From a virus (taxonomy: Duplodnaviria; Heunggongvirae; Uroviricota; Caudoviricetes), in the IMG/VR virus record IMGVR_UViG_2563366958_000013: 17,310 nt of DNA; one strand, given 5' to 3'. The notes below the pieces were generated by a model. That model saw only the letters and a program-made list of their open reading frames with translations, did no database searches and was not told where the DNA came from. The position numbers and the translations under genes were made by a program. Below are positions 8,694-15,381 of the stretch, piece after piece; position 1 is the stretch's first letter, and every line of letters starts with the position of its first letter.

Positions 8694-11600
8694 ATGGGTA
8701 AAGGAAGCAGTAAGGGGCATACCCCGCGCGAAGCGAAGGACAACCTGAAGTCCACGCAGTTGCTGAGTGTGATCGATGCCATCAGCGAAGGGCCGGTTGA
8801 AGGTCCGGTGGATGGATTAAAAAGCGTGCTGCTGAACAGTACGCCGGTGCTGGACACTGAGGGGAATACCAACATCTCCGGTGTCACGGTGGTGTTCCGT
8901 GCCGGTGAGCAGGAGCAGACACCGCCGGAGGGGTTTGAATCCTCCGGCTCCGAGACGGTGCTGGGTACGGAAGTGAAATATGACACGCCGATCACCCGCA
9001 CCATTACGTCTGCAAACATCGACCGTCTGCGCTTTACCTTCGGTGTACAGGCACTGGTGGAAACCACCTCAAAGGGTGACAGGAATCCGTCGGAAGTCCG
9101 TCTGCTGGTTCAGATACAACGTAACGGTGGCTGGGTGACGGAAAAAGACATCACCATTAAGGGCAAAACCACCTCGCAGTATCTGGCCTCGGTGGTGGTG
9201 GGTAACCTGCCGCCGCGCCCGTTTAATATCCGGATGCGCAGGATGACGCCGGACAGCACCACAGACCAGCTGCAGAACAAAACGCTCTGGTCGTCATACA
9301 CCGAAATCATCGATGTGAAACAGTGCTACCCGAACACGGCACTGGTCGGCGTGCAGGTGGACTCGGAGCAGTTCGGCAGCCAGCAGGTGAGCCGTAATTA
9401 TCATCTTCGCGGGCGCATTCTGCAGGTGCCGTCGAACTATAACCCGCAGACGCGGCAATACAGCGGTATCTGGGACGGAACGTTTAAGCCGGCATACAGC
9501 AACAACCCGGCCTGGTGTCTGTGGGATATGCTGACCCACCCGCGCTACGGCATGGGGAAACGTCTTGGTGCGGCGGATGTGGATAAATGGGCGCTGTATG
9601 TCATCGGCCAGTACTGCGACCAGTCAGTGCCGGACGGTTTTGGCGGCACGGAGCCGCGCATCACCTGTAATGCCTGGCTGACCACGCAGCGTAAGGCGTG
9701 GGATGTGCTCAGTGATTTCTGCTCGGCGATGCGCTGTATGCCGGTATGGAACGGGCAGACGCTGACGTTCGTGCAGGACCGACCATCAGATAAGGTGTGG
9801 ACCTATAACCGCAGTAATGTGGTGATGCCGGATGATGGCGCGCCGTTCCGCTACAGCTTCAGCGCCCTGAAGGACCGCCATAATGCCGTTGAGGTGAACT
9901 GGATTGACCCGAACAACGGCTGGGAGACGGCGACAGAGCTTGTTGAAGATACGCAGGCCATTGTCCGTTACGGTCGTAATGTCACGAAGATGGATGCCTT
10001 TGGCTGTACCAGCCGGGGGCAGGCACACCGCGCCGGGCTGTGGCTGATTAAAACTGAACTGCTGGAGACGCAGACCGTGGATTTCAGCGTGGGTGCTGAA
10101 GGGCTTCGCCATGTACCGGGCGATGTCATTGAAATCTGCGATGATGACTATGCCGGTATCAGCACCGGTGGTCGCGTGCTGGCGGTGAACAGCCAGACCC
10201 GGACGCTGACGCTCGACCGTGAAATCACGCTGCCATCCTCCGGTACCACGCTGATAAGCCTGGTTGACGGAAGTGGCAATCCGGTCAGCGTGGAGGTTCA
10301 GTCCGTCACCGACGGACTTAAGGTGAAAGTGAACCGGGTTCCTGACGGCGTTGCAGAATACAGTGTGTGGGGGCTGAAGTTGCCGACGTTGCGTCAGCGC
10401 CTGTTCCGCTGTGTGAGTATCCGGGAGAACGATGACGGTGCGTATGCCATCACCGCCGTGCAGCATGTACCGGAAAAAGAAGCCATCGTGGATAACGGGG
10501 CGCACTTTGACGGCGACCAGAGCGGCACGGTGAATGGTGTCACGCCGCCAGCGGTGCAGCACCTGACCGCCGAAGTCACCGCAGACAGCGGGGAATATCA
10601 GGTGCTGGCGCGCTGGGACACGCCGAAGGTGGTGAAGGGCGTGAGCTTCCTGCTCCGTCTGACCGTAACAGCGGATGACGGCAGTGAGCGGCTGGTCAGC
10701 ACGGCCCGGACGGCGGAAACCACTTACCGCTTCAGGCAGCTGGCGCTGGGGCGTTACACGCTGACGGTCCGGGCGGTAAATGCCCGGGGACAGCAGGGCG
10801 ATCCGGCGTCGGTATCGTTCCGGATTGCCGCACCGGCAGCACCGTCGAGGATTGAGCTGACGCCGGGCTATTTTCAGATAACCGCCACGCCGCATCTTGC
10901 CGTTTATGACCCGACGGTACAGTTTGAGTTCTGGTTCTCGGAAAAGCGGATTACCGATATCAGGCAGGTTGAAACCACAGCCCGCTATCTTGGTACGGCG
11001 CTGTACTGGATAGCCGCCAGTATCAATATCAAACCGGGCCATGATTATTACTTTTATATCCGCAGTGTGAACACCGTTGGCAAATCGGCATTCGTGGAGG
11101 CTGTCGGTCAGGCGAGCGATGATGCGGAAGGTTACCTGGATTTTTTCAAAGGCCAGATAACCGAATCCCATCTCGGCAAGGAGCTGCTGGAAAAAGTCGA
11201 GCTGACGGAGGATAACGCCAGCAGACTGGAGGAGTTTTCGAAAGAGTGGCAGGACGCTAACGATAAGTGGAATGCCATGTGGGGCGTCAAAATTGAGCAG
11301 ACCAAAGACGGCAAACATTATGTCGCGGGTATTGGCCTCAGCATGGAGGACACGGAAGAAGGCAAGCTGAGCCAGTTTCTGGTTGCCGCTAACCGTATCG
11401 CGTTTATTGACCCGGCAAACGGGAATGAAACGCCGATGTTTGTGGCGCAGGGCAATCAGATATTTATGAACGACGTGTTCCTGAAGCGCCTGACGGCCCC
11501 GACCATTACCAGTGGTGGAAATCCACCGGCATTTTCCCTGACATCAGACGGAAAGCTGACCGCTAAAAATGCGGATATCAGTGGCAGAGTGAATGCGAAC

Positions 11601-12107
11601 GCCGGGACGCTCAACAATGTCACGGTAAATGAAAACTGTACGATTAAGGGCATGCTGGAGGCGACTCAGGTCAGAGGTGACTTCGTTAAAGCTGTATCCA
11701 AATCATTCCCGAAACAGGCTGGTACGTGGGGTAACACGGAAACACCAAACGGGACGGTTACAGTCACCATCAGCGATGATCATAACTTTGACCGTCAAAT
11801 CATTATTCCGCCCATTATCTTTAACGGAATAGCGTATAGCGATCCGGGAAGTGGTAATAACCCGGGAGGTACAAGATACACGGGTTATGGTTTTGAAGTT
11901 CGCAAAAACGGTGTATTAATCGCATCCAGAGAAACTAAAGGGGCCATTCCCGGTAGCTACAGTGCGGTTATTGATATGCCGAGTGGCAGGGGAAGCGTCA
12001 CTCTGGAGTTTAAGGTTTTCCATAAAGGCAATCAGTGGGCAGGTAATATCACCGACTGTACGGTGATTGTGACCAAAAAAGCCGCTTCCGGCATCAGTAT
12101 TCGTTGA
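8694..12107 (+). CDS. J: tail tip attachment / central tail fiber (host specificity) protein J
   Basis: 1137-aa product; the first ~1000 residues ([34 protein letters not shown]...) closely match lambda gpJ as I recall it; the last ~130 residues look divergent. RBS GAGGAA upstream. Confidence 0.92.
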
Positions 12108-12128
12108 AATTGTTATAACCCATATAAG

Positions 12129-12152
12129 GGCACCAGAAATGGTGCCTTTTTT
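12129..12152 (+). terminator. rho-independent terminator downstream of J
   Basis: GGCACC (12129-12134) / loop agaaat / GGTGCC (12141-12146) followed by TTTTTT (12147-12152); 22 nt after the J stop. Confidence 0.6.
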
Positions 12153-12176
12153 ATTGCAGAAAAGCGAGAGGTAATT

Positions 12177-12776
12177 ATGCGTAAACTTTATGCCGCCATT
12201 TTGTCCGCAGCCATTTGTCTGGCCGTATCCGGTGCGCCTGCATGGGCATCTGAACATCAGTCCACGCTGAGCGCGGGGTATCTTCATGCCCGGACCAACG
12301 TTCCCGGCAGTGATGATCTGAACGGGATTAACGTGAAATACCGTTATGAGTTTACGGATACGCTGGGGCTGGTGACGTCATTCAGCTATGCAGGAGACAA
12401 GAATCGCCAGCTGACCCGTTACAGCGATACCAGCTGGCATGAAGATTCCGTGCGTAACCGCTGGTTCAGCGTGATGGCGGGGCCGTCTGTGCGCGTGAAT
12501 GAATGGTTCAGCGCGTATGCGATGGCGGGTATGGCTTACAGCCGTGTTTCGACTTTTTCCGGGGATTACCTTCGCGTAACTGACAACAAGGGGAAAACGC
12601 ACGATGTGCTGACCGGAAGTGATGACGGTCGCCACAGCAACACGTCTCTGGCGTGGGGGGCTGGCGTGCAGTTTAACCCGACCGAATCCGTGGCCATTGA
12701 TATTGCTTATGAAGGTTCTGGCAGTGGTGACTGGCGCACTGACGGTTTCATCGTGGGTGTCGGTTATAAATTCTGA
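12177..12776 (+). CDS. lom: outer membrane beta-barrel protein Lom (Ail/Lom/PagC/OmpX family), lysogenic-conversion moron
   Basis: 199-aa product MRKLYAAILSAAICLAVSGAPAWASEHQSTLSAGYLHARTNVPGSDDLNGINVKYRYEF...GFIVGVGYKF matches lambda Lom; signal peptide with AWA-SE cleavage context, C-terminal aromatic residue (F) typical of OMP barrels; RBS GAGAGG. Confidence 0.9.
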   Translation: MRKLYAAILSAAICLAVSGAPAWASEHQSTLSAGYLHARTNVPGSDDLNGINVKYRYEFTDTLGLVTSFSYAGDKNRQLTRYSDTSWHEDSVRNRWFSVMAGPSVRVNEWFSAYAMAGMAYSRVSTFSGDYLRVTDNKGKTHDVLTGSDDGRHSNTSLAWGAGVQFNPTESVAIDIAYEGSGSGDWRTDGFIVGVGYKF

Positions 12777-12802
12777 TTAGCCAGGTAACACAGTGTTATG
12801 AC

Positions 12803-12830
12803 AGCCCGCCGGTTCAGGTGGGCTTTTTTG
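12803..12830 (+). terminator. rho-independent terminator downstream of lom
   Basis: AGCCCGCC (12803-12810) / loop ggttca / GGTGGGCT (12817-12824), an 8-bp stem with one G-U pair, followed by TTTTTT (12825-12830). Confidence 0.6.
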
Positions 12831-12840
12831 TGGGGGGAAT

Positions 12841-15237
12841 ATGGCAGTAAAGATTTCAGGTGTACTGAAAGACGGCACAGGAAAACCGGTACAGAACTGC
12901 TCAATCCAGCTGAAAGCAAAACGTAACAGCACCACGGTGGTAGTGAACACGCTGGCCTCAGAAAATCCGGATGAAGCCGGGCGTTACAGTATGGATGTTG
13001 AGTATGGCCAGTACAGCGTTATCCTGCTGGTTGAAGGTTTTTCGCCTTCACATGCCGGGACCATCACCGTGTATGAAGATTCTAAGCCGGGGACGCTGAA
13101 TGATTTTCTCGGTGCCATGACGGAAGATGATGTCATGCCGGAGGCATTGCGTCGTTTTGAGGAAATGGTGGAAGAAGCGGCACGCAACGCTGAAGCCGCC
13201 TCTCAGAGCGCAGCGGCGGCAAAGAAATCCGAAACTGCAGCGGCATCATCGAAGAACGCGGCGAAAACCTCAGAAACGAATGCAGCTAATAGTGCACAGG
13301 CGGCAGCGACCTCAAAGACTGCATCGGCAAACTCCGCGACAGCAGCCAAAAAATCAGAAACCAACGCGAAAAATAGCGAGACAGCCGCAAAGACGAGCGA
13401 AACCAACGCAAAGTCCAGCCAGACGGCAGCGAAAACCAGCGAAACGAATGCCAAAGCCAGTGAAACTGCGGCAAAAAACAGCCAGGTTGCAGCAGCCCAA
13501 AGCGAGAGCGCGGCAGCCGGTTCTGCGACTTCAGCAGCTGGATCAGCAACTGCTGCGGCTAACAGCCAGAAAGCTGCGAAGACGAGTGAAACTAACGCAA
13601 AGTCCAGCCAGACGGCAGCGAAGACCAGCGAAACGAATGCCAAAGCCAGCGAAACTGCGGCGAAAAACAGTCAGGATGCAGCAGCCCAAAGCGAGAGTGC
13701 TGCAGCTGGTTCTGCAAGCGCGGCGGCTGCTTCTGCCACTGCATCAGCCAACAGTCAAAAAGCAGCAAAAACCAGTGAAACCAATGCAAAGACAAGCGAG
13801 ACTGCAGCGGCGAACTCGGCGAAAGCATCGGCAGCAAGCCAGACAGCAGCTAAAGCAAGTGAAGACGCAGCCAGAGAGTATGCAAGTCAGGCAGCAGAGC
13901 CGTATAAATATGTCTTACAGCCACTGCCTGATGTGTGGATACCGTTTAACGATTCACTGGATATGATTACGGGCTTTTCGCCGTCATATAAAAAAATTGT
14001 TATTGGTGATGATGAAATAACGATGCCTGGCGACAAGGTTGTTAAGTTTAAACGCGCATCAACTGCCACATATATCAATAAATCAGGCGTATTTAGTGTT
14101 GCTAAAATTGATGAGCCACGATTTGAAAAAGAAGGTTTATTGATTGAAGGACAGCGCACTAACTATTTTGTTAAATCCAATACTCCCGCTGAATGGACGA
14201 GTACCAGCAATATCGATAAAACTAATAATGGTGTTGATGAATTTGGTTTTTCATATGCCAAAATGCGAACAAAAGATAATATGACAGGACAATCATCTGC
14301 ACTTAGTCTGCATACATGCAGTGCATCCCGGGGGATTGATGTTTGTGGCGATAATAAGTATTGCACTGTTTCATGCAGGGTTAAAGCTCCTGATGGTCTT
14401 CGTTGTCGTTTGCGTTTTGAAAAATACGATGGGTCGGTTTATACATTTTTAGGAGATGCTTATTTAACTTTCGGAACTCTGATAATAGAAAAAACTGGCG
14501 GAGCAGCCAATAGAATAGCAGCTACTGCAACTAAAGATCCGGTTACAGGGTGGATTTTCTATGAGGCAACTATAGAAGCTGTTGAAGGTGAAACCTTAAT
14601 TGGCGCAATGATTCAGTATGCGCCGAAAAAAGGTGGTATAACTGAAGCGGGAGATTATATTTACCTTGCAACACCACAATTTGAAAACGGCGGATGTGCT
14701 TCATCTTTTGTTATTACGACAACTGCACCCGCAACCCGCTCCAGTGATATGGTGACGATCCCAACTGAAAATAATATCTATAATAGACCGCTTACGTGTC
14801 TTGTCGAGGTTAATAGAAATTGGGGCGATATTCCTCCTAATGTAGCACCGCGTATTTTTGATTTTTCTGGTGTGCCACCTATTGAGTCAATTACATACGC
14901 TTTTAACACAACTGAGAAATATTACGGTCAGCTTTATATGCAAACTTATAAAGCGTCGACAAGTACTTACGTTTCTAGTGTGTTTGCTGGTCGAGCTGAT
15001 GTTCGAAAATTCATTGGTGGTTTTAATATTTATTCTGATGGTACTAAACGAGTAGTTTCTAACGGTGAGGCTACTAAAACTATGAAAACGGAGTGGACGG
15101 GCGTAAAAACACGGACCTTTATTCGAATTGGAGGTCAAGCCACATCGGGAACTCGTCATCTATTCGGCCATTTGAGAAATCTTCGTCTCTGGCATAAAGA
15201 ATTAACTGATGCGCAAATGGGGGAGAGTATTAAATGA
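12841..15237 (+). CDS. stf: side tail fiber protein, chimeric: lambda Stf-like N-terminus, Ala/Ser/Thr-rich repeat shaft, non-lambda C-terminal domain with a LamG/ConA-like signature
   Basis: 798-aa ORF; N-terminus MAVKISGVLKDGTGKPVQNCSIQLKAKRNSTTVVVNT...SKPGTLNDFLGAMTEDDVMPEALRRFEEMVEEAARNAEAA matches lambda Stf as I recall it. The central region is tandem repeats (AAKTSETNAKSSQT...). The C-terminal ~440 aa are AT-rich DNA and end ...GHLRNLRLWHKELTDAQMGESIK, which resembles the terminal motif of Laminin_G_3/ConA-like jelly-roll domains. RBS GGGGGGA upstream. Confidence 0.8.
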   Translation: MAVKISGVLKDGTGKPVQNCSIQLKAKRNSTTVVVNTLASENPDEAGRYSMDVEYGQYSVILLVEGFSPSHAGTITVYEDSKPGTLNDFLGAMTEDDVMPEALRRFEEMVEEAARNAEAASQSAAAAKKSETAAASSKNAAKTSETNAANSAQAAATSKTASANSATAAKKSETNAKNSETAAKTSETNAKSSQTAAKTSETNAKASETAAKNSQVAAAQSESAAAGSATSAAGSATAAANSQKAAKTSETNAKSSQTAAKTSETNAKASETAAKNSQDAAAQSESAAAGSASAAAASATASANSQKAAKTSETNAKTSETAAANSAKASAASQTAAKASEDAAREYASQAAEPYKYVLQPLPDVWIPFNDSLDMITGFSPSYKKIVIGDDEITMPGDKVVKFKRASTATYINKSGVFSVAKIDEPRFEKEGLLIEGQRTNYFVKSNTPAEWTSTSNIDKTNNGVDEFGFSYAKMRTKDNMTGQSSALSLHTCSASRGIDVCGDNKYCTVSCRVKAPDGLRCRLRFEKYDGSVYTFLGDAYLTFGTLIIEKTGGAANRIAATATKDPVTGWIFYEATIEAVEGETLIGAMIQYAPKKGGITEAGDYIYLATPQFENGGCASSFVITTTAPATRSSDMVTIPTENNIYNRPLTCLVEVNRNWGDIPPNVAPRIFDFSGVPPIESITYAFNTTEKYYGQLYMQTYKASTSTYVSSVFAGRADVRKFIGGFNIYSDGTKRVVSNGEATKTMKTEWTGVKTRTFIRIGGQATSGTRHLFGHLRNLRLWHKELTDAQMGESIK
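13387..13764 (+). repeat. two tandem ~189-bp (63-codon) imperfect direct repeats inside stf, with a partial third copy starting at 13765
   Basis: Unit beginning gc(a/g)aagacgag(c/t)gaaac(c/t)aacgcaaagtccagccagacggcagcgaa at 13387 recurs at 13576 with about 90% identity; protein repeat AAKTSETNAKSSQTAAKTSETNAKASETAAKNSQ(V/D)AAAQSESAAAGSA... Shorter ~14-codon sub-repeats extend from ~13200 to ~13860. Confidence 0.8.
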
Positions 15238-15381
15238 AAGATTTAACACTCAAATTTGCAGACAGGGCCGACTTTTCGGCCTTTATGGAGAGCATTGGCT
15301 ATTATGATGACGAGTCGATGCAGGATGATATTCTTATTGACGTGATAGGTAATGTGTACAAAGAAACCGGAGAACTTACTG

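Follow-up and report, generated by a model that had tools for sequence, protein, structure and literature searches.

The C-terminal region of gpJ in a lambdoid prophage is a phage 434 (h434)-type allele of the Ig-like receptor-binding domain

In the tail tip protein J encoded in a lambdoid prophage sequence, the last ~170 residues correspond to the gpJ specificity region in its phage 434 (h434) allelic form. The divergent tail of this J is a homologous allele of the Ig-like gpJ receptor-binding domain, and we document its sequence identity, domain family, fold, junction, and population frequency in the window analyzed here (i.e., the whole 17,310-nucleotide stretch of IMG/VR record IMGVR_UViG_2563366958_000013). 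Its receptor is very probably OmpC, as for 434. The feature is already known as the h434/OmpC specificity module, and its occurrence in this prophage is real but ordinary.

The window represents the tail-gene half of a lambdoid prophage and retains the lambda gene order (i.e., head-tail joining genes, major tail protein, G/T, tape-measure protein, M, L, K, I, J, lom, and side tail fiber). A 4.3-kb stretch (positions 11000 to 15300), which runs from the end of J across lom and the side tail fiber gene, was 100% identical to the chromosome of Escherichia coli AF3, a human blood isolate in which the prophage adjoins ompT, envY, and nfrA, and roughly twelve further complete genomes matched it at 99.4 to 100% identity. 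E. coli SCU-172 also carries the prophage. Over its whole length, the J protein shared 88% identity with lambda J, and the gpJ annotated in AF3 was 100% identical to it. Its Pfam domains follow the order seen in lambda gpJ (FNIII-A_GpJ, Phage-tail_3, Ig_J, Ig_J_second, Phage_Tail_Tip, and Ig_GpJ_C). The coordinates of J, its subdivisions, and the features immediately downstream are listed in Table 1.

Table 1. Features of gene J and of the region downstream of it in the window
Feature	Positions	Strand	Basis or remark
J, tip attachment/central tail fiber protein	8694-12107	+	1,137 aa plus stop (ORF list, translation)
Lambda-like J body, residues 1-964 (hub domains, FNIII domains, alpha-helical shaft, central straight fiber)	8694-11585	+	933/960 residues identical to lambda; DNA identity to lambda of 0.87-1.00 (100-nt bins)
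Transition zone, residues 965-1000	11586-11693	+	Decaying identity to lambda; recombination junction of the specificity module
Ig-like C-terminal receptor-binding domain, 434/h434 allele, residues 1001-1136	11694-12101	+	PF12421
Loop a, hypervariable with indel, residues 1008-1018	11715-11747	+	Putative receptor-contact loop
Loop b, hypervariable with indel, residues 1047-1062	11832-11879	+	Putative receptor-contact loop
Loop c, hypervariable, residues 1079-1088	11928-11957	+	Putative receptor-contact loop
Loop d, hypervariable with indel, residues 1109-1120	12018-12053	+	Putative receptor-contact loop
Terminator-like hairpin plus T-run, J-lom interval	12126-12157	+	Consensus scan: 10-bp stem, 4-nt loop, T tail
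lom, 434-type Ail/Lom outer-membrane beta-barrel protein, 199 aa	12177-12776	+	PF06316, E = 6e-119

The departure from lambda was located by pairwise alignment of J with lambda J (NC_001416, 1,132 aa). Identity was 97% over residues 1 to 960 (933/960) and 72% over residues 951 to 1000, and it then dropped to 42%, 30%, and 30% in the remaining bins. Within the last 132 residues of J, 47 of 138 alignment columns were identical (34%), and the contrast in identity between the head and the tail of the protein gave a Fisher P value of 2e-72. A preliminary description of this DNA, made from the sequence alone, had given lengths of 1,137 and 1,132 aa for the two proteins and had regarded the last ~130 residues as mostly unlike lambda. 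Both lengths were confirmed, and the identity of ~34% in the final region is far from the >~90% of a lambda-like tail. The same description had J following lambda up to about residue 1000; this holds for the body of the protein (97% over residues 1 to 960), but the break lies near residues 965 to 975, ~35 to 40 residues further upstream. The peptide that it quoted for the divergent region is present and begins at residue 1005 (nucleotide [nt] 11706), but the start that it gave for the region (position 11690) is off the codon boundary. At the DNA level, identity to lambda decreased from ~0.95 to ~0.5 at nt ~11600. Mismatches with lambda cluster from this point and are very dense from ~11645, the onset of the clustering falling within nt ~11600 to 11660 (i.e., codons ~970 to 990). 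The position of the break agrees with the previously defined specificity region of J (residues 960 to 1132; PMC6646904) and with the point at which foreign J tails have been grafted onto lambda J (residue 964; PMC11338833).

The divergent tail was also described at first as AT-richer than the rest of J, and this proved correct. Its GC content was 47.2% (positions 11690 to 12104) versus 57.6% in the rest of the gene (chi-square P = 8e-5), with GC3 values of 0.47 and 0.70, respectively; the GC content of the last 415 nt of lambda's own J is 55.9%. The GC content of J is already down to 0.50 to 0.54 from nt ~10900 onwards, so that only part of the shift in composition can be ascribed to the domain itself.

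Comparison with phage 434 identified the allele. The whole J gene was 96% identical in DNA sequence to the J gene of 434, and the two proteins are equal in length (1,137 aa). They aligned without gaps, with 126 of the last 132 residues and 164 of the last 175 residues identical. From the GDFVK motif to the end of the protein, identity was 95% over 143 residues, and the indel pattern was equal in all four loops. DNA identity between the window and 434 was 0.8 to 1.0 throughout, and the divergence from lambda that begins at nt ~11600 marks a junction in common with 434. In phage 434 (OL657226), the loop indels and the junction with lambda-like DNA are also those of the window, and the 434-type terminator and lom come next, as they do here. 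The differences between the two consist of ~5% DNA divergence, mostly synonymous, and a different side tail fiber downstream (798 aa in the window versus 437 aa in 434).

The other domain classes with which we compared the window were far less similar. The domain of the window was 95% identical to that of 434 and 36, 41, and 43% identical to those of lambda, phage 21, and A8, respectively. The lambda domain has the same Pfam family, Ig-like fold, and framework motifs as the window and is attached to a J body that is 97% identical, but all four of its bottom loops differ (the window having a net gain of five residues), its conserved cysteine lies in another strand, and its receptor is LamB rather than OmpC. 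The gpJ of A8, a natural OmpC-targeting J tail of the same family and fold, was the best match among solved structures in both sequence and structure, but it represents a distinct class in which loop a is six residues shorter. The window encodes neither lambda-like LamB-contact loops L1 to L4 (36% identity, with indels in all four) nor an A8-type OmpC-binding domain (43% identity, with the length of loop a off by six). The engineered chimeras A8 and 1A2 were rejected as the source of the tail: exact strings from the window are absent from the supplement of PMC11338833, A8 is only 43% identical, and the printed DNA end of 1A2, as read, encodes another tail (...DMPAGHGH...GITIS). Phage 21 was likewise rejected as an OmpC phage of the window's class, being natively a LamB phage with a domain only 41% identical to that of the window.

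The link to the classical h434 host-range marker was examined using the sequence of lambda h434 imm21 (OM418627), which was compared with both parents. Its J matches lambda to nt ~2115, and 434-specific differences are found from nt 2133. The classical hybrid thus switches from lambda to 434 DNA between J nt 2115 and 2133 (codons ~706 to 711), which maps the host-range determinant to the final ~430 codons of J or to sequence immediately beyond them. Within this 434-derived span, strong differences from lambda are found only in the last ~170 residues. Over residues 965 to 1137, the window differs from the hybrid allele by 11 substitutions (S965R, S970A, I978V, Q980E, A1004S, K1008Q, V1009A, D1019N, D1049S, N1050D, and G1099R), among which K1008Q, V1009A, D1049S, and N1050D fall in the putative contact loops a and b. 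The hybrid and the sequenced 434 stock themselves differ at two sites (N1050D and W1115R), with W1115 common to the window and the hybrid.

The preliminary description spoke of a replaced domain; what we found instead is an allele that is homologous to that of lambda and has the same Ig-like fold. The C-terminal region matched PF12421 (Ig_GpJ_C) with 90.9 bits (cutoff, 26.2), and J residues 1001 to 1136 covered profile positions 1 to 134 of 135. With PF09327 at residues 845 to 972, the receptor-binding domain comes directly after the tail-tip fiber domain. When the last 133 residues alone were searched against structures using phmmer, the A8 gpJ 713 (E = 2e-22) and lambda gpJ (E = 9e-15) were matched over the full length. 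The AF2 model of residues 933 to 1137, a monomer model of moderate confidence, is an all-beta sandwich (mean pLDDT of 75 and pTM of 0.64, with domain blocks at 78 to 94). Foldseek searches of the PDB with this model returned only four strong matches (8xck, 9wca, 8xcj, and 9wcb; E = 3e-17 to 3e-15), the next match having an E value of 7e-4. These entries are lambda gpJ in the closed state (8XCK) and bound to LamB (8XCJ) and A8 gpJ in the closed state (9WCA) and in the open state with OmpC of E. coli EDL933 (9WCB); our literature search found no publication for 9WCA or 9WCB. The predicted structure of the J C terminus is in this way an Ig-like fold whose best matches are gpJ receptor-binding domains. 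That the tail instead has a non-homologous fold, acquired from an unrelated tail-fiber gene and binding a non-porin receptor such as LPS or FhuA, might be suggested by an identity to lambda of only 34 to 36% and by the shift in base composition. We consider this exceedingly improbable and rejected it on three grounds: the full-length similarity of the domain alone to the lambda and A8 domains, the end-to-end match to PF12421, and the fold search, in which only gpJ domains appeared at E values of <1e-14.

Variation within the family was evaluated by aligning seven classes of the domain, namely, the window/434 class, those of lambda, phage 21, and A8, and three more taken from a protein search. 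The protein homologue search gave mostly fragments of J, which are usable as class representatives and not for counting full-length J proteins. The classes were 36 to 50% identical to one another, and the framework motifs FP, DDHxFDRQ, NG, DMPxGxG, and KKxxxGIS were conserved across all seven. Relative to lambda, loop a is longer by two residues (and longer by six relative to A8 and phage 21), loop b has a net insertion of six residues, loop c has a one-residue indel, and loop d has a net deletion, with within-class polymorphisms such as W1115R also falling in loop d. Conserved loops (DDHxFDRQ, NG, and DMPxGxG) and the four variable loops follow one another in alternating order. On the basis of this alternation, we infer that the variable loops are grouped at the same end of the sandwich as counterparts of lambda L1 to L4, a placement derived from the conservation pattern rather than from coordinates; the conserved loops would then point toward the fiber.

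The six other classes (lambda, phage 21, A8, P0048, P0050, and P0055) all have a cysteine in the strand that follows loop b. In the 434 class, Gly-Tyr-Gly occurs in its place at residue ~1065 (nt ~11886), and a cysteine is found at residue 1122 (nt ~12057) in the penultimate strand (ITDCTV), where the other classes have Leu, Val, or Gln. The two changes may compensate for each other, a buried residue having been exchanged between adjacent strands.

The features of this tail correspond to prior knowledge on the recombination of J. Maddamsetti et al. (2018, PMC6646904) defined residues 960 to 1132 as a "specificity region" whose recombination is independent of that of the remainder of J, with indel hotspots at lambda residues 1012, 1048 to 1049, 1077 to 1078, and 1107; these correspond to loops a, b, c, and d, respectively. 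Boundaries, four hotspots, and independent recombination are all as in the window, and nothing substantive differs. The comparison set of that study included mEp460, cdtI, and Ayreon, all of which carry the 434 allele class. The sharp junction in a conserved stretch, together with the drop in GC3, fits homologous recombination of a specificity cassette, by which the module would have been joined to the lambda-like J body within the conserved stretch at residues ~960 to 990. The 434-class domain also occurs in ev243 and Ayreon on a J protein of 1,165 aa with a 28-residue insertion further upstream, which is a further sign of the domain moving independently of the J body.

The allele is widespread. 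The 415-nt J tail matched 2,111 of 5,426 complete E. coli genomes (760 at ≥99% identity), and lambda's own tail matched 98 of the 5,426, all at ≥99% identity, the matches listed being laboratory strains. Divergence from lambda is the usual state of E. coli J tails, and it is lambda's allele that is rare. Among phages, the J-tail DNA was 100% identical to that of PhiR49_1, 99.6 to 99.8% identical to those of Ayreon, cdtI, and Perceval, and 99.2% identical to that of phi458. Some thirty Stx2c- and Stx1a-converting phages also carry J-tail DNA that is 99.2 to 99.8% identical to that of the window. The domain protein of Ayreon is that of the window, with no nonsynonymous differences.

Within the 434 class, pairwise Nei-Gojobori dN/dS ratios in the domain were 0.05 to 0.19, as in the J body (upstream ratios for ev243 and Ayreon were ignored, as the 28-residue insertion shifts the ungapped comparison out of register). 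These low ratios indicate that the 434-class domain is a maintained, functional allele. Diversifying selection within the class was rejected, the ratios of the domain and the J body being the same and giving no gene-wide sign of it. A position beside ompT, envY, and nfrA is that of an integrated prophage, and many E. coli prophages are cryptic; the J tail might accordingly be drifting without function in a defective prophage, in which case no receptor inference would be possible. Such decay is highly improbable. The reading frame of J is intact over 1,137 aa, the complete lambda-like tail operon is intact upstream, and the conserved framework motifs are all kept. Moreover, the dN/dS ratios are low, and the domain is identical or near-identical to those of the plaque-forming phages Ayreon, PhiR49_1, cdtI, and Perceval.

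The block that diverges from lambda does not end with J. It extends from nt ~11600 to ~12710, where the sequence returns to a lambda-like state, and takes in the last part of J, the hairpin, and almost the whole of lom; it is 434-like throughout. A terminator is annotated at the place equivalent to the hairpin in phages 434, mEp460, and Ayreon. The DNA identity of lom was ~0.5 to lambda until nt ~12710 and 0.87 to 1.0 to 434; the Lom gene of lambda is 621 nt long. Despite this single block, lom and the receptor-binding domain are separate modules. Their inheritance as one cassette, which would have hinted at a functional connection, was rejected from phage records: the 434-type lom was present in 175 records and the window-type domain in 74, and among Stx2a records, 42 had the 434-type lom and 4 had the domain, many Stx2a phages being without the domain. 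Conversely, HannyBb and PhiR11_1 carry the window-type domain and no lom. An open reading frame on the minus strand (positions 11916 to 12287, 123 aa) lies antisense to two conserved genes (the end of J and the start of lom), has no Pfam match, and is probably spurious.

Further downstream, the side tail fiber (positions 12841 to 15237, 798 aa) is a second host-range module. Its N terminus is lambda-like to nt ~13130. The shaft that follows is rich in Ala, Ser, Thr, Lys, and Glu and composed of repeats, with a 189-nt unit present 2.3 times and sub-repeats of 21 and 42 nt; the AT skew of the repeat shaft is extreme (0.5 to 0.74). The C-terminal half has a GC content of 37 to 41%. These properties concern above all positions 13200 to 13900 and 13850 to 15200, and the module is even more AT-rich than the J tail.

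In the J body, F924 (nt 11463 to 11465) is conserved together with the whole 32-residue central-straight-fiber peptide (residues 902 to 933). This peptide is reported to activate HepS, the abortive-infection nuclease of Gifsy-1 (PMC13043305, 2026). From its conservation, triggering of HepS would be predicted for the J protein of the prophage.

The receptor assignment rests on characterized relatives. The C terminus of gpJ decides host specificity, and replacement of lambda J with the 434 gene results in binding to OmpC, the receptor of 434 itself (PMC3509688, PMC11101478). In engineered lambda particles, fusion of naturally occurring J tails to lambda J at residue 964 switched delivery from LamB to OmpC (PMC11338833), which independently places the receptor determinant in the divergent region. 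The preliminary description had expected an outer-membrane receptor other than that of lambda, and the region indeed belongs to the 434/h434 allele, which classical genetics has assigned to OmpC and not to LamB. For this J tail, the inference of OmpC holds only because a characterized, near-identical relative exists; divergence from lambda alone is insufficient for it.

The manner of binding can be proposed from the same relatives, as can the contact surface formed by the loops. In lambda, the four bottom loops L1 to L4 insert into LamB, the three domains spread, and the tail tip opens (PMC11101478). By analogy, three copies of the domain would be present at the tip of the central tail fiber of this phage, and each copy would dock, through the four variable loops at its distal end, on the extracellular loops of a trimeric porin, which for the allele of the window would be OmpC and not LamB. 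Docking would then spread the three domains, as in lambda, and the change would travel up the conserved fiber and open the tip for DNA ejection.

Alternatively, the tail could be a 434-class sub-variant with shifted specificity that accepts only certain OmpC alleles (e.g., those of extraintestinal pathogenic lineages) or another or additional porin, such as OmpF. Several of the 11 substitutions relative to h434 are in loops a and b, and OmpC is polymorphic, with the gpJ chimeras A8 and 1A2 accepting different OmpC alleles (PMC11338833). Single mutations in J widen the receptor range in phage 21 and lambda, and the DNA-identical PhiR49_1 has ECOR13 as its host and the 97% variant PhiR26_1 has MG1655. 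However, Ayreon, whose domain protein is identical, was isolated on a K-12 derivative (PMC5764929), and phi458, with 99.2% DNA identity, is recorded on MC1061. These hosts argue that the variant works on K-12, as 434 does. The within-class dN/dS ratios, which are no higher than those of the J body, also argue against strong diversifying selection between sub-variants. We consider shifted specificity quite unlikely for this phage, and use of OmpC in the manner of 434 remains the preferred reading. A related proposal concerns the class as a whole, i.e., that it is not functionally uniform and that its sub-variants are tuned to different OmpC alleles; we give it a small chance. Most of the differences between sub-variants fall in loops a, b, and d (positions 1008, 1009, 1019, 1049, 1050, 1099, and 1115).

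Across the family, sequence class and receptor do not correspond one to one. At least four classes that are only 35 to 45% identical mutually (434, A8, 1A2, and phi330) are reported to use OmpC. The domain of phage 21, a LamB phage, is 80% identical to the OmpC-binding domain of A8 (sequence of PDB 9wca), so that a split between LamB and OmpC occurs at that level of identity. In addition, phage 21 can gain OmpC as a receptor beside its native LamB through a single substitution (PMC11336670).

For annotation, the J protein of this prophage can be labeled 434/h434-type with a predicted OmpC tropism, and not lambda-like and LamB-binding. If sub-variants of the 434 class were matched to particular OmpC alleles, the exchange of these prophages between E. 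coli lineages, including that of toxin-converting ones, would depend in part on the J sub-allele. For the gpJ family as a whole, the comparison carries a caution: sequence class does not equal receptor.
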